A stretch of DNA of 64,000 bases from Gemmatimonadota bacterium (GTDB taxonomy: Bacteria > Latescibacterota > UBA2968 > UBA8231), in contig JAYOYH010000010.1 of NCBI GenBank assembly GCA_038153405.1, forward strand, positions 22,751-86,750, in the 5' to 3' direction. Position numbers and translations under genes: made by a program. Positions 10,349 to 26,478 of this stretch are shown one piece after another. Each line of letters opens with the position of its first letter. Positions within the stretch are counted from its first letter, which is position 1. Below the pieces are notes generated by a model, which was not told the origin of the DNA, made no database searches, and worked only from the letters and a program-made list of their open reading frames with translations.

Positions 10349-10409
10349 GAAAACCCTCCCTTATTCACCAGCATTTGTCTGACAATCTATTCCAAATGCT
10401 CGAAGTACG

Positions 10410-13400: not shown

Positions 13401-13751
13401 CCGGGTGTTATTGGATAAACTGCTGGCCCCACCGCTGACCACATCGCCGCCAGCGCGCACCAAATCCTTATAGCTAAAGTTGGCTGCCGTAGGGCCGATG
13501 TTGATATTGCGCCGATAAAAGACCGGACGCATCCCCTCCGCATCGACCTGAAAGATGTCGGCGTCGGTAATGGGCACGTTAAGCGAACCGACGAGGTCGT
13601 TTTGATAGCTCCAATTGAGCCAATGCGAAGCCCTATCGACTCGAATCGAGTTGCCAAATAGCCTGTAGGCGTCACCGACCTGAGACAGTGCAGGGACTGC
13701 CAACAGGACTCCTAGCAACACAGCGTGGCACACAGTCATCCGATTTTTCAT
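10410..13751 (-). CDS. T9SS cargo protein (1113 aa) with two N-terminal discoidin (F5/8 type C)-like domains and a C-terminal T9SS sorting domain
   Basis: Signal peptide MKNRMTVCHAVLLGVLLAVPALSQ. ILDDNLETYWEP...ELEIDLGRLVYVDSVTVIF and ATDGLYDSEWQ...YDLGAVFWVDNVSVV match the discoidin pattern. An acidic DDDGDGVTDEDPIDLIDNDGDGLVDEDG calcium-binding-like stretch is present. The C-terminus FTPNGDGINDELVVRF....VNVAY has the gliding-motility/CHU_C-type T9SS CTD signature. Confidence 0.75.
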   Translation of the reverse strand: MKNRMTVCHAVLLGVLLAVPALSQVGDAYRLFGNSIRVDRASHWLNWSYQNDLVGSLNVPITDADIFQVDAEGMRPVFYRRNINIGPTAANFSYKDLVRAGGDVVSGGASSLSNNTRSLAILDDNLETYWEPSVASNYERRLDETHEFSVDGLRKWELEIDLGRLVYVDSVTVIFPAGQVGEEFLGEPLKSFAVFASMGERFPFPLGNSLNFSLVGQVATNFAAGKIAQCVRDESAGYAGGTSCSGGGGEEVNELVLRPTPGTDGRYVQMTFPLRPLDRADWDLDGLPDIDGTFLQYIRIKVTDSDLWRDAFLGAGEEGRVVYEALPSEQRGALVFQRLTAGGLLVELQDDENGLNARAKFEALSEDKRGPILYYSREVPRISEVQVWAKGDNYALQPEKRGGASYENGGLGAPELATDGLYDSEWQANTWSPIYLKGTAWYDLGAVFWVDNVSVVNKRINQSHLGAFLGPDILVSDGTLLKPLSMQQRDDFPQLEEGLKWDNIISAEHVDNHDQVVRIFRETFSPRKIRFLQVRDIDVTGQQSGRYGSLATLGEIQLYGEGYPVSVWAYSPPISLTDARGEFIRKTLPQIAWGGDVIIRDTDPVTGQTVERIEPLENHPDVRLQVQTRTSDQTDTNFTYYEVVEIAGAQERQEVAKEVYDALVLEWTAWNIWQTLPDNKRHESRVDDDGDGVTDEDPIDLIDNDGDGLVDEDGKKLRREPRSSYDSEGELAFVGWSEWSESYAPTNGRNEATITSPNPRKFLQIRVNISSEEPFKTARVRELRVDLAPPLSLELAGELALLTDEGKGRPVTELLSLPVDYVAPTGVDPLSQQSFSYFIRAAAPDPADVTVRDGFNEVLIVTPLAAELKGVRVGTVSVSEQASLIDPTASLTTAVQTDFTRFYGRDADGTFRNEAGEALMVMATRSDSLWVRFPESVNGNLLGGRHAIVEVQFESQSFREGIEFGSFVRSSNGEEGVFQRVDTSSKDATELVESSTARVSLMALSDALIQDVDMAAVFTPNGDGINDELVVRFALLKVLEERPLGVEIFDLSGRLVGRGQGSGMAGMVGAQEFRWNGLDASGALVPPGMYICRIIVEADQGDSELMRIVNVAY

Positions 13752-13808: not shown

Positions 13809-16259
13809 TTAATAGGCGACGGAAATGAGTTTCGTTCTCGCCTCGCCCGCATCGTCCGCTTCCGTCGACAGCCGCAATATGTATAGTCCTGGCGGCACCA
13901 GGCTGCCCATGTCGTCCCTTCCATCCCACTGTTCTGAATAGCCACCTGAGTTCAGCAAGCGCTCGATGAGGCGCAGGCGGTTCCCATTCAGATCGTATAC
14001 CGCAAGCAGGACCGCGCGGGGCTCTAACAAGCGCTGGACGTCAAAGCGGACCTCTAACAGATCGTTGACCCCGTCGCCGTTCGGTGTAAAAGGGTTGGGA
14101 GTCGTTTCGAAGTTCGCAACTAAATTGCTCCCCTGCGCCGAGATATCGGCGATAACCGCAAGCGAGTTGCGGTCGGAAAGCTGCTCTGTAGCATCAAAAT
14201 CGATGACATCGCTGCCCTCGACCGGCTGCGGCAGAAAGAGAGCCAAGGTGTCGGCAGCTGCGCCCAACGTGAGGATTCCGTTATTGGTAAAGCGGCGATC
14301 GAAGCTCGATGCCAGCGTATCCAAGAACACGTTGGCCGCGAAGTTGGTGCGGAAGTCAATCACGCGCGCGCGGAAGTTGACTTTCACAACCGCCTCCCGA
14401 TCCAGCCCATCGTCACCGGGGGCAATCGTCGGAAATCCGATCACAAATTGCTCGTCATCAACGAATAGCGCGCTGAACTGATCATCATCGAAATCGGGGT
14501 TTTCGCTGGCAGACAACATGCGCACATCGCCGGCACCCATATCGATTGACACAGATTGAATGTTTTCGACGCGGGCAGGCGTGAAGACCTGCAGCCGATT
14601 GAAACCGTTGTTATTCGCTCCCAGGGACGCTCTAATCGCAATGGCGAAGGTCGTGTCTATACCAGCCTTGACGTCGACCGCGGGAGCGATCTCGCCGACC
14701 ACGGCGTCGGTGATCTGCGGCGCCGAGTATTCAAAGCGCAGGTTGCGCACAATCGTCGCCGACTCCGATGATAAACTTCTGAACTCAACATCGATCTGAA
14801 TAAAGGGCCTACCACTCGGCGAGTTGATGAGCTGGCCATTGGTCACCTGCTGCACGCCGCTCCAGTACTCGAGATCCGGCTCAATTTTCCTGCGCAAGTT
14901 GCCGGGCAGCGCCTGATATTCGGCGCGCGTCAGACGAACGGATTCGCGCTCGTCGGGCAGCAGCGCGCTGAATATTTCGCGAACTTCTAGGTTGAACTGT
15001 GGGTCGTTCAAGTCGATCTGCTCGCCGCGCGTCTTCGATCCGGCGCGACGGTCCACTACAATAGCGTTTTCCGGCTTCCACTCGACCTGACGCTCGAATT
15101 CGTTGACGCGAAACAGCACATCCGGCTCGGCATTAACACCCGTCTGAATGCGCACGATGGCACTCGACTTGGTCGGGTCACCGACCTTATCCTCTTCCCA
15201 AAAAATGCGACCAAGGGTCGACGGCGGCAGCGGCAAGGCGATAGAGCGATAGGTCGCCTGCGGCACAAAGCCGTCGGCAAAGAATTCCATCTCGCCCAAA
15301 TCATAGTCGAGTTCGGTCTGAAAGTCCATGCGCGCGTAGCGCATTTTGGCGGGCGGATCGAACGCCACCGCCACTGTGTCCTCGACGTTAACGGGCGCAC
15401 TCTGCTCGGGAACAAAAGTGGGAAACGTCGGGGCAATTTTGGTGAATATGGGAAAGGCCAACTGACCGACGGTCGGATCGTCCAAGCTCAAGCCGGCAAT
15501 GACTTTTTCCGTGCCGGCAATACCCCGATAGAACGTGTAGGCAGAAATGCGAACGGGCGCCTCCGGACTGGGATATACCCGCATGAGGCGAATGGGAAAA
15601 AAGCGTCCGAGGTCGACATACAGCGTCCAGACCTGCTTGACGTCCTGCCCAACGCGGTCGATGCGCTCAAAGTGGGTAAGCGGATCGCCGTCAAATACGC
15701 GGCCCAATCCCTCTTGGAGCCGCTGTAAGGTCAGCGCACGCTCAAAAATACCCAGTGTCGTGAGATTGAGACCCTTATTGTATTTGTCTCCTCCCGGCGG
15801 GCGCGGAAACGACTCCGCTACGTTAATCAGCGCAGCGACCGTATCCACGCCGGCTAGGCGCAGCATCTGCACGTCTTCCAGCGACCGAGGAAAGTCACCC
15901 CAGCGCGAAATGAGCACATCACCAGCGGCCACGGAGCGATCGCCGAGGGTGGCATCCAGCTGCGCTACGACTTCGGATCGGGCAACGTGTTGCGAAAATT
16001 CAAATAGAATGGAGTCAGCACCAGCGCTGCCCTCCTCAACCTGCGGGACAGGCACCATTTGCACCGGCTCGATCGGCGCAATCCCGTCGGGAACGCGTAG
16101 GAGATCGACGGCTTCGAGATAGCGCTGCTCGGAGATAGGTCCCTGTTTGGCATCAACCCAGGAGATATCTTGCGGAATGGAAAAGATCTTGAGTTCGGCA
16201 GGGCTTTCGCCCACCAGGCCCGCCAGCACTGCTACGGCGATACGCTTTGACCATCTCAT
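13809..16259 (-). CDS. T9SS cargo protein (about 816 aa) with C-terminal T9SS sorting domain; paralogous over its C-terminal half to the 1113-aa neighbour
   Basis: C-terminus FTPNGDGVNDLLEVRF...LISVAY. The preferred start is MRWSKRIAVAVLAGLVG at 16259 (signal-like, GGAGAG upstream) rather than the acidic MNEESDPESQG start at 16292. The region FIQIDVEFRSLSSESATIVRNLRF...IRA aligns with QIRVNISSEEPFKTARVRELRV...IRA of the downstream protein. Confidence 0.7.
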   Translation of the reverse strand: MRWSKRIAVAVLAGLVGESPAELKIFSIPQDISWVDAKQGPISEQRYLEAVDLLRVPDGIAPIEPVQMVPVPQVEEGSAGADSILFEFSQHVARSEVVAQLDATLGDRSVAAGDVLISRWGDFPRSLEDVQMLRLAGVDTVAALINVAESFPRPPGGDKYNKGLNLTTLGIFERALTLQRLQEGLGRVFDGDPLTHFERIDRVGQDVKQVWTLYVDLGRFFPIRLMRVYPSPEAPVRISAYTFYRGIAGTEKVIAGLSLDDPTVGQLAFPIFTKIAPTFPTFVPEQSAPVNVEDTVAVAFDPPAKMRYARMDFQTELDYDLGEMEFFADGFVPQATYRSIALPLPPSTLGRIFWEEDKVGDPTKSSAIVRIQTGVNAEPDVLFRVNEFERQVEWKPENAIVVDRRAGSKTRGEQIDLNDPQFNLEVREIFSALLPDERESVRLTRAEYQALPGNLRRKIEPDLEYWSGVQQVTNGQLINSPSGRPFIQIDVEFRSLSSESATIVRNLRFEYSAPQITDAVVGEIAPAVDVKAGIDTTFAIAIRASLGANNNGFNRLQVFTPARVENIQSVSIDMGAGDVRMLSASENPDFDDDQFSALFVDDEQFVIGFPTIAPGDDGLDREAVVKVNFRARVIDFRTNFAANVFLDTLASSFDRRFTNNGILTLGAAADTLALFLPQPVEGSDVIDFDATEQLSDRNSLAVIADISAQGSNLVANFETTPNPFTPNGDGVNDLLEVRFDVQRLLEPRAVLLAVYDLNGNRLRLIERLLNSGGYSEQWDGRDDMGSLVPPGLYILRLSTEADDAGEARTKLISVAY

Positions 16260-16349
16260 TCCTTGGCTCTCCGGGTCAGATTCCTCATTCAATACGCGAT
16301 AAAGGGCGAGATACTAAACGGCAGGAAGGTTAGAGCACGCGTTTGTCCT

Positions 16350-16393
16350 GAAAAACAGCGTTGAAGAGAGGGGGTTGCCCCCCTCTCTTCAAC
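16350..16393 (-). terminator. Intrinsic terminator downstream of the 330-aa secreted-protein gene
   Basis: The 14-15 bp G/C-rich perfect stem TTGAAGAGAGGGGG / CCCCCTCTCTTCAA has a 4-nt loop. On the minus strand it is followed by a T5 run (plus-strand AAAAA at 16351-16355). Confidence 0.7.
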
Positions 16394-16423
16394 GGGATAT
16401 CACAGCGCATTGCAGCGCTTAAA

Positions 16424-17329
16424 TTACTCGACCGAGGCCTTGATACGACCCCAAGAATCGCTCTCAACAGCCGTGCCACCACCACCGGCACCGACCAAGC
16501 GACCATCGACGAAACGCTCAGCGTAACGCCAGGTAGCGGCCTGACCGGACAGGGTGTGGAACGCGCGGTAGTTGGAGGGCTCGATGTCGAAGTCAGGCAC
16601 CGAAACCTGGAAGCCAATGATGCCACCGTCGACCAGGTTCGTGGCCTGGCTATCATCGGGGCTGTTCCAGATCAGGTCGTCAAACGGCGTGACGTAGAAC
16701 TCGAAGATCGAGGTCGTCGGACCCTCGCCAACCGAGCCACCGCCGCCATCGGCATAGGGCAGCGCGTTGACCCACTCGGCACCGGCGCCCTGATAACCGA
16801 CGTGGCGGCCATCGGGGGTGTCGGCAATAGCGACATACTGCTGAGCGGTGCGGTTGTTGTTCAACAGCTTCTCGTCGTCGGTCCAGTTCTCGTCAGCCGA
16901 ACCCGTGTAGTCACCACCGGTGTGGTCGCCGTCGAGCATGAACTCGATAGCGTCGTGACGCCAGAGCTGACCGAGGTCGCCACCAGCATACTCGTTGATG
17001 TACACGTTATCAACGCGCTCCATGGCCATGTAGATGGTGCTGGAGTTGCCGTTCCAGCCTACCCAAATGCGGTAGTCGAGGTCGGCCGGATCATACTGGG
17101 CACCTTCGCCCACGGTCGGATCCTGGTAGAAATCAGTCGTGACGAGCGGAGCATCGCCAACGACGTCTTCCCAGTCAGCAACGCTGATATCGCGAATATC
17201 GATATCAGACAAATCCGAATCGGGAATTTCGTAGATCAGGTAAACAGATTCGCCTATGTGGGCGCTTGCGGTACCGCTCATGCCGCCAACGAGGCCGGCA
17301 ACGATCAGAGAGAGTAGAGACTTTCTCAT
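16424..17329 (-). CDS. Secreted hypothetical protein (about 301 aa)
   Basis: The start is placed at the internal Met (MRKSLLSLIVAGLVGGMSGTASA, signal peptide) preceded by AAGGAG at 9-nt spacing. The ORF tool's longer 330-aa start would sit inside a terminator hairpin. The sequence is D/G/W-rich with no catalytic motif. Confidence 0.55.
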   Translation of the reverse strand: MRKSLLSLIVAGLVGGMSGTASAHIGESVYLIYEIPDSDLSDIDIRDISVADWEDVVGDAPLVTTDFYQDPTVGEGAQYDPADLDYRIWVGWNGNSSTIYMAMERVDNVYINEYAGGDLGQLWRHDAIEFMLDGDHTGGDYTGSADENWTDDEKLLNNNRTAQQYVAIADTPDGRHVGYQGAGAEWVNALPYADGGGGSVGEGPTTSIFEFYVTPFDDLIWNSPDDSQATNLVDGGIIGFQVSVPDFDIEPSNYRAFHTLSGQAATWRYAERFVDGRLVGAGGGGTAVESDSWGRIKASVE

Positions 17330-17416
17330 TTGTTTGGACTCCTTCCAAAAGATCTTTTGAATCACACTGTACTCATACGTAAAGAAGGCTTCTGCGGCAT
17401 CGATATGACACCGCAT

Positions 17417-17676: not shown

Positions 17677-18534
17677 CTATTTATCTTCTTCCTGCTCATC
17701 CTGAGCCCGAAAGCGTATTTGTTTTACGTGGTGCATGCCAATGGAAAACGGGCCAGAAGGGGTCTTTCCCGTCAAGGCCGCATTGACGCGGTCGTAATAG
17801 CTCCTGTCGGTTTCCCCCGACAGGCGCACGGTGCTGGCATCGACAGTGCCCATCACCGTTCGCCCGTTCCAGTAGATGGCCGTGATGGGGCGAAACTCCT
17901 CGGCGGAGCCGCTGTCGTCGAAATCTATTTTGTCGACTTTGTCCAGGGGGATAAAACGCTTGTTGCGACCGCGAAAAAAGTCGAGGCGCAGCTTGCCGCG
18001 AAAGCGCAGGTCTTCCACTTCGAAGCGCTTGCCCTCCAACGTGATGACGGTAGCCTTTAATACGGGCTCCTCGACGACCTCCTCGCCTTCGGGGTGCTGC
18101 AGGATGATTTCCTGCACATCGCTGACCAAGATGAAGAACGGCCCCAGCGATGTGACGCCCGTAAAGCGCCGGCCGCTGCTGCCTCCTCCAACTGCGTCCT
18201 GGTGCGGAGCTGCCCCACCACCGGTCAACATGAGGCCCCTCTCTTTCTTTCCAGACCGCATCGACAGAGATACGGCCTGTTCCTCGTCTCTTCCCTCCCC
18301 TTCAAAGCGGATTCGATCGATCAGTACTAATTGCAGCATTCGCCGCTGATCGCCGATATAGACTTCGATTTCTTGACGTCCCTGATACGCAAAGCGCTCT
18401 ACCTTGTGCTGGTTACCATAGCGATCAATCACGATCGCCTGCGCGGCCCCTCCTTCGATAACGCCGCACAGAGTGAGCAATAGACCGAGCAACACTATCA
18501 GGTGACTACGAGCCTGTTCACGTGTAGATTTCAT
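17677..18534 (-). CDS. Secreted hypothetical protein (285 aa)
   Basis: Signal peptide MKSTREQARSHLIVLLGLLLTLCGVIEGGAAQA. No known motif. It is the last gene of a long same-strand operon. Confidence 0.5.
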   Translation of the reverse strand: MKSTREQARSHLIVLLGLLLTLCGVIEGGAAQAIVIDRYGNQHKVERFAYQGRQEIEVYIGDQRRMLQLVLIDRIRFEGEGRDEEQAVSLSMRSGKKERGLMLTGGGAAPHQDAVGGGSSGRRFTGVTSLGPFFILVSDVQEIILQHPEGEEVVEEPVLKATVITLEGKRFEVEDLRFRGKLRLDFFRGRNKRFIPLDKVDKIDFDDSGSAEEFRPITAIYWNGRTVMGTVDASTVRLSGETDRSYYDRVNAALTGKTPSGPFSIGMHHVKQIRFRAQDEQEEDK

Positions 18535-18558
18535 ACAGATCGCTCCGCGTTGAGTCTA

Positions 18559-19248
18559 TTATTGTTCGCCTTCGTCGGCCGCCCCTTCGCCGGGCTGTCC
18601 CGGAGTCGGCGGAGGTCCGATAATGATATTCTGCGTCTGGCCCATATTGACCTGCACCGGACGAATCTCATCGCTGCCGCTGCTGGACAAGTTTTCAATG
18701 CGCACTTTGTACTCGCCGGTCGGCACGATAAAATACCGCACTTCGGTCGACGTCATGCCGCGCCCTAGAACCGTGCGCAGATTGTAGTCATATATAAGAA
18801 AGGGCACCTGGCGACGCTCGCTGCCCTCAAAGAAGATGAGCTGAAAGCGCCCAATGGGAATGGTCGCATACACTTCCTGTCCCATATTGACCTGCACTTC
18901 CTTCTCCACGCTGTCCTCGACATCCGTATTGACCACGACCAAATAGGATCCCGGCGGCAGATCGACGTACTGGGGAAAGGCGCCATAACCCGTTTCGTAG
19001 CCGACGGGCGAACTAGCCGCAGAGCGCGGCGAATCGGCATACACCTCTTCGCCCGTATCGTTATCAATGACGTAGAAGTTGACCTCGTTGATTCCGCCCG
19101 CTTCCAACATGAGACGGCCCTTGCCCTCGGCAATCGGCGGTGGACCGTAGGCTGTGCCGCTACCGGTCGTGGCACAGCCTACCAACGCGACGAGCAGCGC
19201 AAAACAAGCGCAAAACCAAACCCTATTCCGCAACCATCCTGTAATCAT
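18559..19248 (-). CDS. Hypothetical lipoprotein (229 aa) with T/S/P-rich N-linker and P/G-rich acidic C-tail
   Basis: The start is adjusted to MITGWLRNRVWFCACFALLVALVGC (lipobox). The tool's longer ORF would overlap the upstream gene by more than 270 nt. The C-terminus reads GPPPTPGQPGEGAADEGEQ. Confidence 0.55.
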   Translation of the reverse strand: MITGWLRNRVWFCACFALLVALVGCATTGSGTAYGPPPIAEGKGRLMLEAGGINEVNFYVIDNDTGEEVYADSPRSAASSPVGYETGYGAFPQYVDLPPGSYLVVVNTDVEDSVEKEVQVNMGQEVYATIPIGRFQLIFFEGSERRQVPFLIYDYNLRTVLGRGMTSTEVRYFIVPTGEYKVRIENLSSSGSDEIRPVQVNMGQTQNIIIGPPPTPGQPGEGAADEGEQ

Positions 19249-19319
19249 TGTGCCTACCCTCCTCTGGCATTTGAGCCAATAGCCCGTTAAGCGGCCAGAC
19301 CGCAATGCCTTCATTGCTC

Positions 19320-20912
19320 CTAATGAACGCGCAGCGGCACTAGCGTGAAGTGACGCGATGCATCGGACTGGCTCTTCACATGAGAAAGAAACCTTTTCTC
19401 GTCTCTCCACAAGTGGGGATACGAAGCGGGGGTGGAAACCCCTCGCTCTACCAGCACGCGCCAGAATGCCTTGTCGCGCATGGCAAAGGCTGTGGCGACC
19501 AAGAAAAAGTCCGCGCCGGCTTCGGCCAAGCTGTCTAGGCGCGAAATGGAAAATGCGTCCGGCGTGAGCTGCCAGCCCTTGCGATGGCAATAGTATAACA
19601 TGGTCGGACTCTGTGCGCGAAACGGCGCGCCGGCGTTTTCGTCCAGATCGCCAACGACTAGCAGGGCGTCGCTCGGCACCTTGGTATCGACGATCTTTCC
19701 CGCAGCAAAACAGCTCTCGTAGTAGGCGTGTAGATTATTGGGCTGTTCGTAGTAGGGGCTCAGCGCTCCGGCGCTGTGCGCCAGCGTTACGCCGCTCACA
19801 ACGCCTAAGAAGACGACGCGCGGGACTGCGTTTCCGTTCCGCATCCAAGCGGCGCGGTGCATCCACTGGTAGAGCCAATCGACTCCGCGCGCAGCCAACA
19901 GCGCCCCGAACGGCACAAAGGGCAACTGGTAGTAGTGCAGCTTGCGATTGCCCTCTGGCACAAGTGCCAAATACAGCAACAGCCCCAATGCCCAACCCCA
20001 CAGTCCCCAGGCATGCCGCGCCCTCTGCTTCCATAAGGCGAACGCACCCATCCCCAGCGCCGCGGCACCCACTGGCGTATAAACCACGTCGATAAAACGC
20101 CAGCCCATCTGTTTGTAAAAATCAATGGACCACAGCACGCTTCGATCCCACTTATCGTAGCCGTAGCGGTTCCAGATGCCAAACGTCAGGCCCGTCTCGG
20201 CAAACAAATCTGCCGCGTGCGCATACCACATCGCGGCGGGCAGCAGCACTGCTAGTGCATAGACCCATAGGGCAGGGCGCAAGAGAAATCGCCATCCCCA
20301 GCGCTCCAAAGCGAGCCCGACCAAGGCAAAGCCGAGGTACAGGGTGGGAATCTTAACCATGAAGCACAGCGCAGCGCTGGCAGCGGCACCCAAAGCGTAC
20401 GGTAAACGCCCGCTCTCCGCCCAGCAATGGAACAGCAGCAGCGCCGCTACGCTCAGCAGGAGCATGAGCGGCTCGGGCATAAAAACGCGTCCGAAATATA
20501 TGCTGAGCGGGGTGAAGAGAAAGAAGAATACTGCCCACAGAGCGACCCGTTCGTCGCCGAATATTCGCCGGGCAAAAACAAATAGCAGAAAGGCCGCTGC
20601 CAGCGAAAACAGGGCAGAGATCAGGCGTCCCAACCCTTCGTGGACGCCCCCGTAGACACCGTATACCGCGGCGACTATAAAAGGATACAGGGGAAAATTC
20701 ATTTCTACGAAGCCGGGCGTATTGCCGCGCCAGTCGACCCGGGGGTAGAGCAGATCGTACCCCTCTTCGTAAAAGTTGCGCGCAATCGCCGCCGTATCCG
20801 TCTGGCGCCACGCCTGTTTGTCTATGAGGGGTTCGCCCATCTCGACGAGGCGCACAGCCAACCCCAACGCCAGCATCCCCAGCAGCCACAGCCGGGCGGT
20901 CTGCCTGGACAT
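19320..20912 (-). CDS. GT-C fold membrane glycosyltransferase, family 39/83 (ArnT / PMT-like)
   Basis: 530 aa with about 11 predicted TM helices. The first periplasmic loop carries acidic/aromatic residues (RQTDTAAIARNFYEEGYDLLYPRVDW). A soluble C-terminal domain follows. The architecture matches the ArnT/PqaB/PMT_2 family. Confidence 0.65.
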   Translation of the reverse strand: MSRQTARLWLLGMLALGLAVRLVEMGEPLIDKQAWRQTDTAAIARNFYEEGYDLLYPRVDWRGNTPGFVEMNFPLYPFIVAAVYGVYGGVHEGLGRLISALFSLAAAFLLFVFARRIFGDERVALWAVFFFLFTPLSIYFGRVFMPEPLMLLLSVAALLLFHCWAESGRLPYALGAAASAALCFMVKIPTLYLGFALVGLALERWGWRFLLRPALWVYALAVLLPAAMWYAHAADLFAETGLTFGIWNRYGYDKWDRSVLWSIDFYKQMGWRFIDVVYTPVGAAALGMGAFALWKQRARHAWGLWGWALGLLLYLALVPEGNRKLHYYQLPFVPFGALLAARGVDWLYQWMHRAAWMRNGNAVPRVVFLGVVSGVTLAHSAGALSPYYEQPNNLHAYYESCFAAGKIVDTKVPSDALLVVGDLDENAGAPFRAQSPTMLYYCHRKGWQLTPDAFSISRLDSLAEAGADFFLVATAFAMRDKAFWRVLVERGVSTPASYPHLWRDEKRFLSHVKSQSDASRHFTLVPLRVH

Positions 20913-20919
20913 GAAGGCG

Positions 20920-22095
20920 TTAGAAGGGGCGCCAATGGGGAGACATATCGTCGCGGTCGTCGTTGTTCGTCAAGTTGACGGGCATACCAACGGGAGAGGG
21001 CAGATCATCCAAGTCAAAGCCGCGCGTCGATACGCGGTAAATGTCGTAGTCGTCTTCGTTCATCTTGCCCGCATAGGCAATCGACTTGCCATCACCCGAC
21101 CACGTGGGCTCTTGCTCGTAGGTTTTTTCGGCGACGGAGATGCGCACCCGCGCACTGCCATCGGCATTCATCAGCATCAACTCTTGGCCGCCAAACCGCT
21201 CTGAATTATAGGCGATGCGCTTGCCCAGCGGCCCCCAAGCGGCAAACCAATCGTATTTCTTATTGTCCGTCAGACGCACTCGATTCGAACCATCTACGGC
21301 GATGAGATAGAGCTCGTCATTGCTGTCAAAAACCGATGAAGTAAAGGCGATGAGTCGGCCATCGGGCGACCACGAAGGTTCGCGCCCCTCGACCAGTTTG
21401 CGCTTATTGCCGCCATCGGCATCCATCAGCCAGATTGACTTATCGCCGTCGCGCTGGCTCTCAAAAGCGATGGTCCGGCCATCGGGCGACCAGACCGCGC
21501 GCTGGTCGCGCTCGGCGTGCTCGGTCAAGCGCCGTCGATTCGAACCGTCTGCGTCCAACGCATAAATGTCGAAATTGGTCATCACATCGCCGCTGGTAAA
21601 CAGGATCTGCTGGCCATCGGGCGACCAAGACGGGTGCTGCTCAAACTCGGGCGTATCGGTCAACTGGCGCCGCTCGGAGCCATCTGCGCGCATCGTAAAA
21701 AGGTCCCAGTTGCGCGCGCTCTGCGGGGTCGATGCATACAGGATAGTACCGGCCAGCGATTCGCCGGCATTGCTCCCAGCCGGCACCTCAAAGGTGACCT
21801 TGTAGTCTTGGACCCCGCTCATTGGAGGCGCTTCCAACTCCAGCACCCGCGTATCCAGGTAGCTTCCAGCCGAGACGTTGACCACATACGTTCCGCTGCG
21901 CAACTCGGCGTCGCTGTCCGGACCGGGAAAGACGTAGGTTCCGGCCGATACCAAGTTGTTGAACTTGTATTGCAGGTCGTTGGCATCTAAGCGCACGTGC
22001 TGCCCATCGCCGCCCTTCACCTCTATAGTAACCTGGTTTTTTCCACATGCGGCCAATAGAAAGACCGCTGCAAAAAGCGAAAAAACTATGCGCAT
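20920..22095 (-). CDS. TolB-like WD40/PD40 beta-propeller lipoprotein
   Basis: The start is adjusted to MRIVFSLFAAVFLLAAC (lipobox). Repeats of the SWSPDG / WSPDGR / TWSGDGK type are present (PD40). Confidence 0.7.
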   Translation of the reverse strand: MRIVFSLFAAVFLLAACGKNQVTIEVKGGDGQHVRLDANDLQYKFNNLVSAGTYVFPGPDSDAELRSGTYVVNVSAGSYLDTRVLELEAPPMSGVQDYKVTFEVPAGSNAGESLAGTILYASTPQSARNWDLFTMRADGSERRQLTDTPEFEQHPSWSPDGQQILFTSGDVMTNFDIYALDADGSNRRRLTEHAERDQRAVWSPDGRTIAFESQRDGDKSIWLMDADGGNKRKLVEGREPSWSPDGRLIAFTSSVFDSNDELYLIAVDGSNRVRLTDNKKYDWFAAWGPLGKRIAYNSERFGGQELMLMNADGSARVRISVAEKTYEQEPTWSGDGKSIAYAGKMNEDDYDIYRVSTRGFDLDDLPSPVGMPVNLTNNDDRDDMSPHWRPF

Positions 22096-22124
22096 ATATC
22101 CCTCCGCAACGTGTTGATATGCTC

Positions 22125-22805
22125 TCAATCCAATCCGCTGAGCCGGCGCAGGACTCCGTCCAACTCGTCAATGACGGCGGACAAATCGGCCATTCCCTGG
22201 GCTCGTATAGGTTTGCCAACGCGAAAAAAGACGCGCGAGCGCGGCCTGATATAGCTCTCGTATTCGATGCCAATGGGAACAATGGGCACTTCAATACCCC
22301 ACCTTTCCTGCGTCCGCAATAGGTGCTCTACCACCTCCTTTTGCACGGGCCCCATACGGTCCTGGTAGCGCATGCCTTCGGGGTGGGAAATCACCAATTC
22401 GCCGTGCCTATACAGCCACGATAAATAGGCCTGCATATCGCTGTTGGCCTCTCGTGCACGCCGTATCGCTTCGCGCCGCTGCTCCCGATCCTTCAGCCGG
22501 CGCACATCTTTGGGGCGAGTGACCTTAACGCCGCCGGCCAGTTCCAGAATGCCCCACAAGCCGCGCTTCATTACAAAGGTGGCAAAGCGACCCGTGTAGC
22601 GATACAGGGAAATCCCCTCGACGATAATATCCCGGTAGGCGTGGTGCTTGGGCAATAGCAGTCCTGCCCCTTCGCGCGGCAGGTTTTCGACGCCTTCGGC
22701 AACCACCTCGTGAAAGTGCAGCAACCCCGCACCGCACAAGCGCACGAGTTGGGCCAGCGCATCAATGCGCCGCAGGCTGAGGTCGTCGTCCCGCACTTCG
22801 CCCAT
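22125..22805 (-). CDS. Lysophospholipid / 1-acyl-sn-glycerol-3-phosphate acyltransferase (PlsC-family)
   Basis: The HX4D acyltransferase motif is present (PKHHAYRDII). The length of 226 aa and the EGMRYQD / IVPIGIEY blocks fit the LPLAT family. It overlaps the downstream gene by 4 nt. Confidence 0.65.
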   Translation of the reverse strand: MGEVRDDDLSLRRIDALAQLVRLCGAGLLHFHEVVAEGVENLPREGAGLLLPKHHAYRDIIVEGISLYRYTGRFATFVMKRGLWGILELAGGVKVTRPKDVRRLKDREQRREAIRRAREANSDMQAYLSWLYRHGELVISHPEGMRYQDRMGPVQKEVVEHLLRTQERWGIEVPIVPIGIEYESYIRPRSRVFFRVGKPIRAQGMADLSAVIDELDGVLRRLSGLD

Positions 22806-22813
22806 CGCAGCGC

Positions 22814-23296
22814 CTAGTGGAATAGTTCCTTGATTTTTCCCCAGGTGCTCTCGTCCACATCCGTGCTCATATGGGCGCCAGACAGGGAACGCACGACGGG
22901 TTCCATATCGCTTCCACTGCCGTGGGAATGGATGCGCGCATCGGGGTAAACGAGCACGGCGTAGTCGCCGCTAGCGCCAGCCCGCTCGACGATGGAATCG
23001 GGGATAGCCCACTCGCCATCTATGGCTTTTGTGCGCGGCCAAACGACGCCGATTAAGTCAAAGGTATGTGCGGACGCGTTGGATATGTTCTGCCAGCTGG
23101 CCAGGCGCTCTACCTGTTGGAAGTGGTCTGGTGAGTACAAGTAGAACAGACGCAGAGTGCCATCGCCTGCCGGGCCATAGCCGCCTTCACCCGCAATCCC
23201 GCTGCCGACGAGGATAAAGCTCAAGCAACACAGCACCACACTTACCCTAGTCACAACCCACCTGCTTGCCACCTTGTTACTCGGCGCGAATCGCAT
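22814..23296 (-). CDS. Hypothetical secreted or membrane protein (160 aa)
   Basis: ORF in operon context with a hydrophobic N-terminal segment (VSVVLCCLSFILVGSGIA). It overlaps the upstream gene's 3' end by 20 nt, so the start may be further downstream. Confidence 0.35.
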   Translation of the reverse strand: MRFAPSNKVASRWVVTRVSVVLCCLSFILVGSGIAGEGGYGPAGDGTLRLFYLYSPDHFQQVERLASWQNISNASAHTFDLIGVVWPRTKAIDGEWAIPDSIVERAGASGDYAVLVYPDARIHSHGSGSDMEPVVRSLSGAHMSTDVDESTWGKIKELFH

Positions 23297-24314
23297 AATC
23301 CTTCTGTACCTCTTCCTGTCCTTCGAGAATGCGCACTAGAGACAAATGCGCGCTCAGCACCTGTTCGATCTGCACCACGCCTACGCGGCGCGGAAGCGCC
23401 GTGCCCAGGACGGCACCCGTTTCTGGGTCCTTCAACTCTCGGCCGTGATCCCATACACCGTATTTGTTGCCGTTGGCCACCGAGTCAGCCAGACCGACGT
23501 TGATATAGGCGCGCGCGCCGTCGACGTCGATGATTTTTGGCCCGGACGAGACTTTGAGCTCCGCTGGCGGCTTGATGAGGCTATCCAGTCCGGCGGCCAA
23601 CTGCAAGAGCTCCTTGCCGACCGATTTGCCCAGCAGTGTCTCGTGAAACTCCGGACTGCCCCACTCCATTTGCCCCAGTAAAAAGTACTCTTTTTCCAGC
23701 GGGACATAGGCAGCCGGGTTCGTAATACCATAGCGCTTGCTATCTTCGACAGCTTCGCGTATCACCTCGCCTGCCGGCTGTCCGTCAATGACTTTATACG
23801 GGTAGAGGCGTATGCTGGTGAGCCCCTGATAGCTGCGGTATCCTCCAACGGGTACAGTCGCGCGAAAGCGCTTCATGCTCAGCTCATCGATCTCGCCCAA
23901 GACGACGAAGTCCGCCCCGACTCGCCGGCCCACTTCCAGTGCCCTATCGACGGAAATCCGCCCTTTTAGCTCTTTCTTATCCAGATGGACCAGCGCCGAA
24001 TCGATGGGCAGCGTGCGAAAAAATTCACTGGCGTAGAGCGAATCGGCCAGGCCGCGCGGCAGCGCAGTGTAGATATCCCACTGCCCCTTGTATTTCGATT
24101 CGTCCTTAAAGGGCAGAAATAGCAGTGCCTGCGCCAGAGCGCTGGCGCTGTCTGTAGCCGCGCTAGAGGGCACAACAAAATCGGCTGCCGTCGCGCCGCC
24201 TTCCCCCGTCTTTTGCTTTGAGCCAACGCCCATGACCGGCACCGGCGACTCGCGGACCGAGGCGCAGCCCCAAACCAAACACCCCAGCAACAGCAGCATC
24301 GCCCTATGCTTCAT
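23277..24314 (-). CDS. Hypothetical lipoprotein (345 aa)
   Basis: Lipobox MKHRAMLLLLGCLVWGC. The C-terminal region (IIDVDGARAYINVGLADSVANGNKYGVW...VGVVQIEQV) suggests a small beta-rich periplasmic domain of uncertain family. Confidence 0.5.
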   Translation of the reverse strand: MKHRAMLLLLGCLVWGCASVRESPVPVMGVGSKQKTGEGGATAADFVVPSSAATDSASALAQALLFLPFKDESKYKGQWDIYTALPRGLADSLYASEFFRTLPIDSALVHLDKKELKGRISVDRALEVGRRVGADFVVLGEIDELSMKRFRATVPVGGYRSYQGLTSIRLYPYKVIDGQPAGEVIREAVEDSKRYGITNPAAYVPLEKEYFLLGQMEWGSPEFHETLLGKSVGKELLQLAAGLDSLIKPPAELKVSSGPKIIDVDGARAYINVGLADSVANGNKYGVWDHGRELKDPETGAVLGTALPRRVGVVQIEQVLSAHLSLVRILEGQEEVQKDYAIRAE

Positions 24315-25588
24315 GAGACGCGCTCCTGCAAGCGGGTGAGCACATAGGGCCCTTTGGGAATCACGGCGATGCGCGCATCGTCGCCCCTCTCGCGCAGCGC
24401 GCGCTGAATGCCCTCTTCGACAGAGGGGACCATTTCAACCAGCACGCTGTCGCGCTGCTCTGCGCCAATACCCTCCGAATACATCATGACCCGTGCCTTG
24501 CGCAGCACCTTGCACAACTCCTGCAGCTGCCACTGATCGATGACGAAAAACTGCGGATCTTCCAACTGGCGCGCGAACTGCTCGACGCTCTCCGTGTTGA
24601 GCAATAGCTCGGTAAACTCGGGACTGCCAATCCCCTCGTCGCAGCGGGCCACGATCAGTACCGTGCCCCCTTCGGCCACGATCGGCAGAGCGGCTGTAAG
24701 CCCCTTGACGGCTTGATAAAAAGTCAGATCGAGCGGCAGCCCCGCGCTCGAGGTGATAACTAAGTCGGCCGGTTCGGCCAGAGCAGCGCCATTCTGCTTT
24801 TCGACAAAGGCCACGCCCTCGGCGTGCGCTTTTTCCAGATCGCCAGCAAAAATAGCGGTGATCTCGCGCCGCTCGTTCATGGCGACATTGAGCGTAAAAT
24901 CGACGCCGGCGCGCTGGGCCACTTCCAGCGCCTGGCGGTGGAATGGATTGCCCTCGATAATGCCTTCAGCGGCGTTGGCATGCGATAGCAGGCGCGGGCC
25001 GTGCAAGACCCGCATCGTATCAACCCCCATCAAGCCGGGGCAAATCGCCTTGCGCCCGCCGGAATAGCCAGCCATCAGATGGGGTTCAATTAACGAGGTC
25101 GCAATCTTCAAGTCGGCTTCGACATAGAGAGTATCGATCCAGATTGGCGCACCACCCGAGGTCTCGCCCAGATAGGTGAGGGTGTCCTTATCGCGCGCCC
25201 GGTGGTTTACAACCCGGTAGTTCTGCGCAATTTCGGCGCCGACCAACTGCACTAGTTCGTCCCCTTCATTGGGACGATGCAAGCCCGTGCCGATGAGAAT
25301 AGTGATGTCCTCGCGGGCCATGCCCTCCTCTTCGAGGGTGCGCAAGATGGGCGGCAGAATCGTTGCATTGGGCACCGGTCGAGTTATATCAGCGATGACG
25401 ACGCAGGCATTTTTCCGACCGGCTGCCAGTCGACGCAGCGACGGCGTGCCAATGGGATGGGCCAGCGCGTGATCGAGTCGCCCCTCAATCTGATCGAGCG
25501 CTGGCGCACCGCTCATCTGTAAGATGTGGGCGCGGTCGGGCACTTCGATCTGTAGGCCGTCCCGTCCGTAGTCCATCGTCACTTTCAT
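24311..25588 (-). CDS. larA: LarA-family protein (nickel-pincer-dependent lactate / 2-hydroxyacid racemase homolog, DUF2088)
   Basis: 425 aa. The family-typical N-terminal sequence is DYGRDGLQIEVPD...VIADITRPVP. The conserved blocks GTGLHRP, GGRKAICPGL and EGNPFH are present. Confidence 0.7.
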   Translation of the reverse strand: MKVTMDYGRDGLQIEVPDRAHILQMSGAPALDQIEGRLDHALAHPIGTPSLRRLAAGRKNACVVIADITRPVPNATILPPILRTLEEEGMAREDITILIGTGLHRPNEGDELVQLVGAEIAQNYRVVNHRARDKDTLTYLGETSGGAPIWIDTLYVEADLKIATSLIEPHLMAGYSGGRKAICPGLMGVDTMRVLHGPRLLSHANAAEGIIEGNPFHRQALEVAQRAGVDFTLNVAMNERREITAIFAGDLEKAHAEGVAFVEKQNGAALAEPADLVITSSAGLPLDLTFYQAVKGLTAALPIVAEGGTVLIVARCDEGIGSPEFTELLLNTESVEQFARQLEDPQFFVIDQWQLQELCKVLRKARVMMYSEGIGAEQRDSVLVEMVPSVEEGIQRALRERGDDARIAVIPKGPYVLTRLQERVS

Positions 25589-26478
25589 ATGGGCTTGCGC
25601 TCCTCTGCGAGTTTTTCTTCGAGATAGACGCGGAAAGCCGCTCCGTGTTCCGGATCCTGCAGGGCAAAATCGGCGAATGCCTTGAAGTAGGTGAGCGGCG
25701 TGCCGATGTCGTAGCGCCGTTCGGCTCCGTTGAGACGCACGCAGCGCACGGGGGCACCGCGCTGCAGCAGAATGCGAATGGCGTCGGTTAGCCAGAGTTC
25801 GCCACCCAGCCCGGGTTTGATCGAATCGATGGCCGAAAATATCTCCGGCGTAAAGATGTAGCGTGCGGCGACAGCCAAACAGCTGGGCGCCTCCGCGATA
25901 TCGGGCTTTTCCACGATATCGGCGATGGCAAAATCATCGCCAACCTCTCCCGCCGGCTGCACGACTCCATATTTGCGCGTGTCTTCGCGCGGCACTTCCC
26001 AAACGCCAATGGTAGCTACCGAGTTGTGACGTTCGTGCGAATCGGCCATACGCTCGATAACGCGCGGCTCATCGGGCGAGTAGATAATCGTATCGCCAAA
26101 GGCAACTACAAAGGACTCATTGCCGACGAATTCGCGGGCCAATCGCACGGCATCGGCATTTCCGTCAGGACGGCGCTGGCGCGCGTAGTAGAATTCTACA
26201 CCTTGAGCGGCATAATCGACTTCGCCGATGATCTGCTCTTTGTCGGACAGCCGCGCTTCCAACTCGGGATCTGCGTCGAAGTGATCCTCAATCGAGCGCT
26301 TTTTCCGGCCCGTTATAAAAAGGAACTTACTCAGGCCCTGTTGGATCATCTCCTCGACGACGTACTGCACTACCGGCTTATACCCCACCGGCAACATTTC
26401 TTTTGGCTGGGATTTTGTCGCAGGCAGTAATCGAGTACCCATGCCCGCGACGGGGAAAACGGCTTTGCGAATAGACAT
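25585..26478 (-). CDS. galU: UTP--glucose-1-phosphate uridylyltransferase
   Basis: KAVFPVAGMGTRLLPATKSQPKEMLPV...VQYVVEE...IEDHFD is a near-canonical GalU signature. The gene encodes 297 aa. Confidence 0.85.
   Translation of the reverse strand: MSIRKAVFPVAGMGTRLLPATKSQPKEMLPVGYKPVVQYVVEEMIQQGLSKFLFITGRKKRSIEDHFDADPELEARLSDKEQIIGEVDYAAQGVEFYYARQRRPDGNADAVRLAREFVGNESFVVAFGDTIIYSPDEPRVIERMADSHERHNSVATIGVWEVPREDTRKYGVVQPAGEVGDDFAIADIVEKPDIAEAPSCLAVAARYIFTPEIFSAIDSIKPGLGGELWLTDAIRILLQRGAPVRCVRLNGAERRYDIGTPLTYFKAFADFALQDPEHGAAFRVYLEEKLAEERKPI

Follow-up and report, generated by a model that had tools for sequence, protein, structure and literature searches.

We found that the largest of three neighbouring genes in a 64,000-nucleotide stretch of Latescibacterota DNA (the whole stretch that was analysed, hereafter the window) encodes a GT-C-fold membrane glycosyltransferase belonging to a widespread, uncharacterised branch of PMT_2 proteins. 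The reading that we favour, to which we assign a probability of roughly 45%, is that this protein is a periplasmic transferase that depends on a polyprenyl-phosphate sugar, that it modifies an envelope acceptor independent of lineage, and that it is co-expressed with an envelope module.

A first-pass annotation of the window had proposed that the glycosyltransferase and the products of the two genes downstream of it form an enzyme-substrate unit. All three open reading frames are present on the minus strand where this annotation had placed them (Table 1), and since each of them has many homologues, they are real genes rather than chance open reading frames.

Table 1. Genes of the conserved block and the gene downstream of it, with positions in the window
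Feature	Position	Strand	Remarks
Secreted protein	16424..17416	-	330 aa, downstream of 285-aa gene
Secreted or periplasmic protein	17677..18534	-	285 aa, signal peptide, orphan family
Lipoprotein	18559..19248	-	229 aa, counted from ATG (MITGW...)
GT-C fold membrane glycosyltransferase	19320..20912	-	530 aa, uncharacterised PMT_2 subfamily
TolB-like lipoprotein	20920..22128	-	short N-terminal domain, then PD40 beta-propeller
PlsC-type acyltransferase	22125..22805	-	226 aa; Pfam Acyltransferase E 3.1e-7
Small protein	22814..23296	-	160 aa, N-terminal hydrophobic segment, poorly conserved
CsgG/LpoB-like lipoprotein	23277..24314	-	345 aa; lipobox, then long Ser/Thr/Ala-rich tether
LarA-like nickel-pincer-dependent 2-hydroxyacid racemase/epimerase homologue	24311..25588	-	425 aa
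GalU-like UTP-glucose-1-phosphate uridylyltransferase	25585..26478	-	297 aa; conserved block begins here

The glycosyltransferase and its family

The enzyme matches the Pfam family PMT_2 (PF13231) over residues 74-229 with an E-value of 4.3e-13 (50.2 bits, cut-off 26.1), and PMT_2 is present in the precomputed annotation of all 37 relatives in our family alignment, which extends down to 28% identity. The match to Pfam PMT (PF02366) spans only residues 75-205 and just reaches the threshold (22.9 bits, cut-off 22.7); this second annotation is carried by about half of the relatives and is absent from the rest. The AlphaFold2 model has a mean pLDDT of 93.9 and shows approximately 13 helices in the membrane part, beginning with TM1 at residues 3-21, which is followed by a loop of approximately 50 residues that contains a helix. 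A soluble alpha/beta domain forms the C-terminus (approximately residues 412-530). A hydropathy scan gives approximately 10-11 distinct peaks, so the original count of about 11 transmembrane helices was a fair one.

In Foldseek searches of the PDB, all of the best 48 matches are GT-C enzymes. The best is ArnT (5f15; E 4.7e-9, TM 0.63/0.62), followed by STT3, AglB and PglB. The folds of PMTs rank below these, and also below ALG9, ALG12, DPY19 and AftA (Pmt4, 9i5k: TM 0.50, E 3.5e-4; Pmt1/2, 6p25: TM 0.32-0.34). The PMT_2 match, the structural model and the fold matches thus bear out the assignment as a PMT_2-type membrane glycosyltransferase with a GT-C fold.

The residues R36, Q37, D39, W61, G63, Y327, Y328, R444, G446 and W447 are invariant in the family alignment. 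The first three of these lie in the motif QAWRQTDTAAIARNF, in what is predicted to be the first periplasmic loop, and the C-terminal domain carries the conserved motif LYYCHRKGW.

Orthology to the two best-known types of related enzyme was considered and rejected. HMMER searches of the PDB with the protein and with its family profile matched no solved structure, ArnT chains included (E ≤ 10), and the enzyme of the window does not match the curated ArnT model (NCBIfam PRK13279) at E ≤ 0.01. That model is matched by one of the 37 relatives, weakly (E 2.8e-5). An ArnT orthologue is thus ruled out, and the firm clustering with ArnT that the first-pass annotation had regarded as an argument against its own proposal is not seen in either search. 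Nor is the enzyme a PMT orthologue: closer folds are found elsewhere, the Asp-Glu pair of loop 1 is missing, and its score with the Pfam PMT model lies at the cut-off.

A conserved envelope operon in Latescibacterota

The unit of three genes was too narrow a description. In Latescibacterota, a conserved operon begins with the genes for the GalU-like protein, the LarA-like protein, the CsgG/LpoB-like lipoprotein, the small protein and the acyltransferase, and continues with those for the TolB-like lipoprotein, the GT-C enzyme, the 229-aa lipoprotein and at least the 285-aa secreted protein, so that two further lipoproteins belong to the block. Just 7 bp separate the TolB-like gene from the GT-C gene that directly follows it, and the spacers further downstream measure 71 bp (GT-C gene to lipoprotein gene) and 24 bp (lipoprotein gene to 285-aa gene). 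The GT-C gene is probably co-transcribed with the envelope operon, from the GalU-like gene to that of the 285-aa protein. The 330-aa gene, whose product has no family match in Pfam or NCBIfam, is co-conserved in most loci and is probably a separate transcript, because it follows a gap of 260 bp in which there is a promoter-like site.

Several proteins of the block resemble known families, some of them at scores under the family cut-off. The GalU-like protein matches NTP_transferase (E 8e-35) and reaches 278 bits with the galU model TIGR01099, under the cut-off of 327; its gene is conserved in all loci with enough flanking sequence, including two loci that lack a GT-C gene (L131 and L132). The LarA-like protein matches Lar_N (E 3e-58) and LarA_C (E 3e-30), and scores 422.6 bits with the NCBIfam LarA model, under the cut-off of 460. 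The LpoB match of the 345-aa lipoprotein in the window is weak (E 0.061), and its counterpart in locus L050, which is 36% identical, matches CsgG with 29.6 bits (cut-off 20.8). The 160-aa small protein, which has no family match in Pfam or NCBIfam, is 25-66% identical between loci, and an AhpC-TSA protein takes its place in L050. The acyltransferase gene is kept in most loci and is missing in L030-L033 and L039. The TolB-like lipoprotein matches PD40 (E 3.4e-32) and the TolB model with 164 bits, under the cut-off of 343. It likely starts at the ATG near position 22095 (MRIVFSLFAAVFLLAAC/G), and its gene is always co-conserved with the 229-aa and 285-aa genes.

The 229-aa lipoprotein has the lipobox LVG/C and the mature N-terminus CATTGSGTAYGPPPIAEG, which confirms the earlier reading of this segment. 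Two beta-sandwich-like modules lie between this tether and a tail made up largely of Pro, Gly and acidic residues (GPPPTPGQPGEGAADEGEQ). A longer open reading frame starting with TTG extends to position 19590 and overlaps the GT-C gene; the ATG is the likely start, because homologues begin near it. Matches to DUF4397, CarboxypepD_reg and PEGA are weak, each below its cut-off, and the 111 homologues all come from close lineages. In the lipoprotein alignment the Cys is invariant and the pattern C-A-[ST]-[ST]-G is conserved, within a Gly/Ser/Thr tether of approximately 11 residues (mean of 3.4 Ser/Thr and 3.7 Gly in 30 homologues). The window protein has 4 Ser/Thr in 10 tether residues (binomial P = 0.023 against its own composition), and a PPP(S/T)P motif in the tail is kept among closer homologues.

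The 285-aa protein, whose signal peptide is probably cleaved after AQA, consists of three small all-beta modules that are followed by an acidic tail (AlphaFold2 model, pLDDT 83). It has no match in Pfam or NCBIfam, and Foldseek gives weak matches only (HsiE/TagJ, TM 0.31; tandem PH-like domains). Its family has just 84 representatives among 1.84 billion proteins.

The argument for a Ser/Thr-rich acceptor region comes down to the short tether of the lipoprotein. Ser and Thr make up 11.8% of this protein as a whole, the 285-aa protein contains no Ser/Thr-rich region, and the tether of the neighbouring 345-aa lipoprotein, rich in Ser, Thr and Ala, is longer. Gly/Ser/Thr tethers are, moreover, a generic feature of lipoproteins, and the Ser/Thr content of the tether in loci that lack GT-C (proteins P0229 and P0227) is equal to that elsewhere.

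Gene distribution and the likely acceptor

In the gene neighbourhoods examined, the enzyme and lipoprotein families differ in distribution, and each is also found without the other alongside. Every cluster-bearing locus falls in a single clade of the GT-C tree. In this clade (GT-C identity of at least 46%), the TolB-like, GT-C, lipoprotein and 285-aa genes are together in every locus with enough flanking sequence. Two loci (L052 and L104) are rearranged, with the order TolB-like, lipoprotein, secreted protein and GT-C, and still retain the adjacency, as does L050 at identities of 46% for GT-C, 40% for the lipoprotein and 31% for the 285-aa protein. On the other hand, approximately 60 loci with GT-C at 27-45% identity, whose neighbourhoods we examined, have no lipoprotein, 285-aa or TolB-like neighbours. 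The GT-C loci without lipoprotein neighbours include MAGs of Eisenbacteria, Ignavibacteria and Phycisphaerales, and also L053, L068 and L071, where GT-C identity is 48-52%. Conversely, L131 and L132 carry genes for GalU, LarA, lipoprotein, small protein, acyltransferase, TolB-like protein, lipoprotein, 285-aa and 330-aa proteins, with no GT-C gene within 7 kb on either side; identity is 48% for their lipoprotein and 41-45% for their 285-aa protein.

Neighbours elsewhere in the family give some indication of function. GT2 genes resembling ArnC, PgfS, AglJ or Dol-P-hexose synthase adjoin GT-C in 4 of 60 distant loci, which fits a scheme of GT2 plus GT-C (PMC11127046). The window and the conserved operon contain neither a GT2 donor synthase nor a flippase, and no arn-type (arnBCADEF) or lipid A genes are among the annotated open reading frames of the window. 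In one locus (L043), a series of SIS+CBS, Hydrolase_3, Lip_A_acyltrans, LptC, LptD_N and ABC_tran genes begins 2.5 kb downstream of the GT-C orthologue. These resemble genes for the synthesis of Kdo, the acylation of lipid A and the transport of LPS, and they are a weak hint of a link to LPS; no LPS neighbourhood recurs among the distant members of the family. Two distant relatives (L047 and L048) belong to gene clusters for polysaccharides that also encode GT4 enzymes and Wzx-like flippases.

According to the reading that we favour, the GT-C enzyme would reside in the inner membrane and, as other GT-C enzymes do, receive its sugar from polyprenyl phosphate at the periplasmic face. Asp39, which is invariant in the predicted first periplasmic loop, may serve as a catalytic residue in the transfer of this sugar, and the acceptor would bind between that loop and the conserved domain at the C-terminus, which would also be periplasmic. 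The acceptor itself would be a lipid-anchored envelope glycan, such as the lipid A or core of LPS, as for enzymes of the ArnT or Rgt type. In the Latescibacterota clade, the GT-C gene would sit inside an older envelope operon, and the downstream lipoprotein and secreted protein would be members of an envelope module, not dedicated substrates. Since the periplasmic motifs are nearly invariant even in lineages without the neighbouring lipoproteins, the acceptor is most likely common to all bacteria that have the enzyme. However, the faithful adjacency within the clade, which survives a change of gene order, suggests that more than joint inheritance links the genes in function, and counts against this reading. 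The same is true of the rejected orthology to ArnT, of the lack of arn-type, lipid A, GT2 synthase and flippase genes in the window, and of the lack of a recurrent LPS neighbourhood in distant relatives. Moreover, the periplasmic loops of actinobacterial PMTs are conserved though many proteins are modified, so protein acceptors stay compatible with the conservation of the motifs.

A dedicated pairing of enzyme and substrate is possible, but is not the best reading and seems unlikely to us. It would mean that, in the Latescibacterota clade, a PMT-like GT-C enzyme O-glycosylates the lipoproteins of its own operon, with sites in the tether and the PPP(S/T)P tail of the 229-aa protein and perhaps also in the Ser/Thr/Ala tether of the 345-aa lipoprotein, much as mycobacterial Pmt adds mannose to clusters of Thr close to lipoprotein N-termini. 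The adjacency, which holds for 100% of the clade loci whose flanking sequence is long enough (even the rearranged ones), the conserved Ser/Thr positions after the Cys and in the tail, the Pfam PMT match at threshold and the precedent of lipoprotein O-mannosylation by Pmt in Actinobacteria (e.g. PMC5554173, PMC3460810) are all consistent with such a pairing. However, the GT-C family reaches far past the lipoprotein families, the module occurs without an adjacent GT-C gene, and GT-C genes stand alone even at 48-52% identity. The generic tether, equally rich in Ser/Thr where GT-C is missing, the composition of the 285-aa protein and a fold nearer to ArnT or STT3 than to PMTs also argue against it. 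Pmt enzymes modify many different proteins, and their genes are not known to lie beside those of the substrates. The first-pass interpretation is supported in part, namely in the class of the enzyme, the lack of firm clustering with ArnT and the adjacency conserved in the clade.

We regard it as improbable that the module took up GT-C for the periplasmic transfer of a sugar to a product of its own. The operon would then make or handle a glucose-derived, acylated envelope product by means of the GalU-like protein, the LarA-like epimerase and the PlsC-type acyltransferase, and the CsgG-like lipoprotein and the TolB-like propeller would be its components in the periplasm or outer membrane. In support of this, co-conservation with the lipoproteins extends to the GalU-like, LarA-like and acyltransferase genes even in loci lacking GT-C, GT-C is inserted at two different positions of the same module, and relatives occur in the polysaccharide clusters mentioned above. 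However, a typical glycan polymerase, synthase or exporter was not found in the block, 5 of its 9 genes have no known function, and the acyltransferase and small protein are absent from some loci (those in which the former is missing, as listed above). The family-wide conservation of the periplasmic motifs in GT-C further argues for an acceptor outside the module.

Just as doubtful is the absence of any functional link, with the adjacency reflecting inherited gene order in one phylum-level lineage and GT-C having an unrelated target: although the cluster-bearing loci are confined to one clade of the GT-C tree and the outer neighbours (330-aa and 827-aa proteins and an acyl-CoA ligase) are likewise syntenic in closer genomes, the tight spacing on one strand suggests co-transcription, and the adjacency persists as far as the divergent L050 and through rearrangement.

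Comparison with known glycosyltransferase systems

The solved structure closest in fold is that of ArnT (GT83; PDB 5f15/5ezm), which belongs to the same Pfam superfamily, PMT_2. The two enzymes share their layout, namely a transmembrane domain of many helices, a presumed catalytic Asp in loop 1 and a C-terminal periplasmic alpha/beta domain. However, they are only 14% identical in the structural alignment, and the family studied here has signatures of its own, WRQTDTAAIARNF and LYYxHRKGW, which differ from ArnT.

In PMTs (Pmt1/Pmt2 and bacterial Pmt), loop 1 bears an Asp-Glu pair, whereas the loop of the GT-C enzyme reads W-R-Q-T-D39-T, in which Thr flanks the Asp on both sides and the adjacent Glu of PMTs is lacking. 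The Asp of periplasmic loop 1 is shared with Pmt (GT39; M. tuberculosis Rv1002c and Streptomyces Pmt), but the likeness in fold is weaker (TM 0.34-0.50) and PMTs lack the soluble C-terminal domain of the GT-C enzyme. The Thr and Ser residues that Pmt glycosylates lie in flexible parts of lipoproteins and secreted proteins (e.g. PMC5554173, PMC3460810).

Periplasmic glycosylation can also involve three components: a GT2 polyprenyl-phosphate-sugar synthase, a flippase and a GT-C enzyme (GT136 system, PMC11127046). In GtrABC/GT136-type systems, the GT-C enzyme takes a polyprenyl-phosphate monosaccharide in the periplasm, and GT2 genes do adjoin distant relatives of the window enzyme. Gtr-type systems have as their acceptors O-antigen or other polysaccharides whose genes lie close by, and there is no such cluster here.

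For Rgt, neither the GT-C enzyme nor its relatives match a dedicated NCBIfam model. RgtA-D of Rhizobium are members of the GT-C superfamily of PMT_2 type, and their target in diderm bacteria is LPS. These ArnT-like enzymes add galacturonic acid to the LPS core and lipid A, an example of how enzymes of this kind modify lipid A or core with various sugars (e.g. PMC4402001).

Gene neighbourhood of the membrane glycosyltransferase

The three consecutive ORFs that the first-pass annotation had described within 17677..20912 are present, on the minus strand, as it had them: a polytopic membrane glycosyltransferase (hereafter GT-C), a 229-aa lipoprotein and a secreted 285-aa protein. The spacers are 71 bp (GT-C to lipoprotein) and 24 bp (lipoprotein to 285-aa gene), and each of the three proteins has more than 100 homologues. 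A longer, TTG-started ORF (18559..19590) was considered as the lipoprotein gene, but its overlap with the GT-C gene, and homologues that begin close to the ATG at 19248, led to its rejection. More genes belong to the neighbourhood than these three: those upstream on the same strand follow with overlaps or spacers of at most 30 bp, and we refer to the block from the GalU-like gene to the 285-aa gene, GT-C aside, as the module. The nearest loci belong to metagenome-assembled genomes (MAGs) labelled Latescibacterota and, in some cases, Gemmatimonadota; the best of them has 85% identity in GT-C and 88-97% in the neighbouring proteins.

Features of the module and its surroundings (window positions)
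Feature	Position	Strand	Remarks
GalU-like uridylyltransferase	25585..26478	-	
LarA-like enzyme	24311..25588	-	
345-aa lipoprotein	23277..24314	-	counterpart at locus L050 above CsgG threshold
160-aa protein	22814..23296	-	
PlsC-type acyltransferase	22125..22805	-	
TolB-like PD40 propeller lipoprotein	20920..22128	-	7 bp from GT-C
GT-C, polytopic membrane protein, 530 aa	19320..20912	-	Pfam PMT_2
Lipoprotein, 229 aa	18559..19248	-	lipobox LVG|C, mature end CATTGSGTAYGPPPIAEG
285-aa protein	17677..18534	-	cleavable signal peptide
Terminator-like hairpin	16359-16394	-	16-bp stem, 10 G-C pairs, T-rich tail
Secreted 827-aa protein	13809-16292	-	
Secreted 1113-aa protein	10410-13751	-	
Acyl-CoA ligase	26610-28457		
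983-aa FapA-like protein	28650-31601	+	
252-aa protein	51663-52421		C-terminal AIR-carboxylase domain

The readings as a classical arn locus or as a three-component locus of the Gtr type were rejected, since the window nowhere contains a GT2 synthase of polyprenyl-phosphate sugars, a flippase or an arn (Ara4N) gene.

Several other features of the region were recorded. The LarA-like protein, a homologue of nickel-pincer racemases and epimerases, falls short of the cut-offs for lactate and malate racemases; 26 kb away lies the gene for the 252-aa protein, with a C-terminal domain of the type characteristic of LarB, an enzyme of cofactor synthesis. The strong hairpin is located directly past the gene for a 330-aa secreted protein and before the 827-aa gene, which is syntenic with the operon in closer genomes. 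The 827-aa and 1113-aa proteins carry C-terminal CHU_C / type B T9SS sorting domains, so that a type IX secretion system is probably present in the source organism. Finally, the 983-aa protein, unusually long for its family, has four matches to the FapA N-terminal region and a FapA beta-solenoid domain, and its gene is divergent from that of the acyl-CoA ligase.

Classification of GT-C

GT-C scores 50.2 bits against Pfam PMT_2 (cut-off 26.1) and 22.9 bits, i.e. at threshold, against Pfam PMT (cut-off 22.7). Its sole NCBIfam match, archaeal Agl23, is sub-threshold, and the curated ArnT model PRK13279 is matched by one of 37 relatives (E 2.8e-5). Searches of the PDB with the protein and with a family profile of 37 sequences retrieved no solved structure, GT-C or other, even at E <= 10, so the enzyme cannot be placed among ArnT and PMT proteins by sequence alone. 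The initial count of about 11 transmembrane helices agrees with some 10-11 hydropathy peaks, and the AlphaFold2 model (pLDDT 93.9, pTM 0.93) has some 13 helices in its membrane part, with a soluble alpha/beta domain starting at approximately residue 412. The best 48 PDB fold matches of this model are all GT-C enzymes, led by ArnT (5f15; E 4.7e-9, TM 0.63, 14% identity) and followed by STT3, AglB and PglB (TM 0.51-0.60) and then by ALG12/ALG9, DPY19 and AftA, with PMTs further down the list (TM 0.32-0.50).

The catalytic Asp of GT-C enzymes is generally found after the first transmembrane helix (PMC11127046). D39 occupies this position, in a loop (QAWRQTDTAAIARNF) whose R36, Q37 and D39 are invariant in the family alignment; the Asp-Glu pair of PMTs is absent. 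PRVDWRG, FGRAFMPE, VKIPTLY and PEGNxxLHYYQLPF are conserved as well, as is LYYCHRKGW of the C-terminal domain, and the subfamily can be recognized by the signature motifs WRQTDTAAIARNF and LYYxHRKGW. The profile, fold and motif results thus place GT-C in a branch of the PMT_2 clan that is new and uncharacterised; it resembles ArnT in architecture, yet it is orthologous neither to ArnT nor to PMT. Literature searches on Latescibacteria glycosyltransferases brought up nothing specific to this subfamily.

Association between GT-C and the lipoprotein module

In the genome collection, the TolB-like, GT-C, lipoprotein and 285-aa genes occur together in all 41 Latescibacterota-type loci as far as the contigs permit, down to 49% GT-C identity. 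We added 80 loci from a metagenome scan seeded with distant GT-C relatives, and labelled a neighbour-joining tree of 128 GT-C sequences by neighbouring genes. All cluster-bearing GT-Cs form a single clade, at whose base L050 retains 46%, 40% and 31% identity in GT-C, the lipoprotein and the 285-aa protein, respectively. (L050 also encodes, three genes downstream of the family member, a second and different PMT_2 GT-C fused to TPR repeats, at 8999-10537.) At two loci, L052 (1902-6704) and L104 (3720-7759), the order is TolB-like, lipoprotein, 285-aa, GT-C, such that the GT-C gene follows the 285-aa gene instead of preceding the lipoprotein gene. Since the genes are nevertheless still adjacent, the adjacency survived a rearrangement, and together with the clade-wide synteny this favours a functional link; that GT-C and the module have no functional link is improbable.

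The first-pass annotation had gone further and proposed a glycosyltransferase-substrate unit. The conserved adjacency within the clade agrees with this proposal, but GT-C and the module each occur alone at other loci. About 60 loci with GT-C relatives of 27-45% identity, including MAGs labelled Eisenbacteria, Ignavibacteria and Phycisphaerales, have zero module genes nearby, and the module is likewise missing beside the full-length GT-C of three loci inside or next to the clade (L053, L068 and L071; 48-52% identity). Conversely, L131 (1048-9608) and L132 (1160-9926), which represent two lineages and were reached via distant lipoprotein homologues, have no GT-C within 7 kb of a gene set of GalU, LarA, 345-aa lipoprotein, small protein, acyltransferase, TolB-like, lipoprotein, 285-aa and 330-aa-like proteins. 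These loci argue against a dedicated enzyme-substrate pair; the lipoprotein module is thus an entity of its own, of which GT-C is a facultative member.

The surroundings of the distant GT-C loci are heterogeneous, with housekeeping genes, polysaccharide clusters and, in one case, LPS-type genes. When all neighbours of these 60 loci were clustered in search of a recurrent partner, none occurred in more than six; generic T9SS-tail proteins came first with 6 loci, ahead of radical SAM and GT2 enzymes with 4 each. In L043 (12532-17171), from one distant lineage, the SIS+CBS, Hydrolase_3, Lip_A_acyltrans, LptC, LptD_N and ABC_tran genes 2.5 kb downstream of the GT-C orthologue look, by their domains, like genes for making Kdo, acylating lipid A and transporting LPS, and this is the sole, weak hint of a link between GT-C and LPS.

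Candidate acceptors

The distant GT-Cs without the module still carry the periplasmic signature motifs. This retention of acceptor-side motifs favours, at a probability of roughly 0.45, an acceptor in the envelope that does not depend on lineage; the most plausible candidate is a glycan with a lipid anchor, for instance lipid A or core. The sugar donor would be a polyprenyl-phosphate monosaccharide, with transfer on the periplasmic face, as suggested by the fold and by GT2 genes (resembling ArnC, PgfS, AglJ and Dol-P-hexose synthases) that adjoin GT-C in 4 of the 60 distant loci; the logic of GT2 plus GT-C in periplasmic glycosylation has been reviewed (PMC11127046).

We consider it unlikely that GT-C glycosylates the lipoproteins of its own module, as their adjacency in the clade could suggest, given the loci at which either occurs alone. 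As to the proposed Ser/Thr-rich acceptor ends, the lipoprotein has, after its Cys, a Gly/Ser/Thr tether of about 11 residues (means over 30 homologues: 3.4 Ser/Thr, 3.7 Gly), and the 345-aa lipoprotein has a longer Ser/Thr/Ala tether. However, this is a generic feature, the tether bears as much Ser/Thr in loci lacking GT-C (proteins P0229 and P0227), and the 285-aa protein has no Ser/Thr-rich segment. Ser and Thr make up 11.8% of the whole lipoprotein, which past the tether consists of two beta-sandwich-like modules (with weak, sub-threshold DUF4397, CarboxypepD_reg and PEGA matches) and a Pro/Gly/acidic tail whose PPP(S/T)P is kept only among closer homologues. Less probable still are a module-specific glycan or glycolipid as the target of GT-C, and a scenario in which, in one Latescibacterota clade, an older envelope lipoprotein operon, now in two gene orders, recruited a widely distributed housekeeping-type GT-C to O-glycosylate its lipoproteins on their tethers.

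The 285-aa protein is modelled (pLDDT 83) as three small all-beta modules. A fold search against the PDB turned up only HsiE/TagJ (TM 0.31) and tandem PH-like domains, matches too weak and partial for a function to be assigned, and a profile search of 1.84 billion proteins found just 84 representatives of the family, which is thus tiny. Five longer proteins (P0386, P0390, P0394, P0401 and P0410) repeat this type of module 3-8 times, so it may be a mobile, so far undescribed domain. One multi-module protein has SprB repeats and another a PGF-CTERM anchor; a Pfam scan of the multi-repeat matches revealed no informative fused domains, with PGF-CTERM, SprB repeats and CHAT once each.

Overall, the three-gene observation is confirmed, but its enzyme-substrate interpretation only in part, given the wider GT-C family and the independent module. 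If the tethers were glycosylated, a diderm bacterium that is not one of the Actinobacteria would have a PMT-like system for lipoproteins, with substrates genetically dedicated to it; the lipoproteins, if true substrates, would be evidence that an uncultured diderm phylum glycosylates lipoproteins in a PMT-like manner, and acceptor recognition by GT-C enzymes could be studied on a tractable pair of enzyme and acceptor. As it stands, the value is more modest, and current views are not overturned. Of modest interest is the orphan lipoprotein module, which comes from an uncultured phylum. Newly defined are a multi-lineage PMT_2 subfamily with clear motifs and without a curated model or solved relative, and an envelope operon, conserved in the Latescibacterota lineage and encoding mostly orphan proteins, both reasonable targets for heterologous expression. 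The likeness to the O-mannosylation of mycobacterial and corynebacterial lipoproteins is real, though here it is based on a generic feature.
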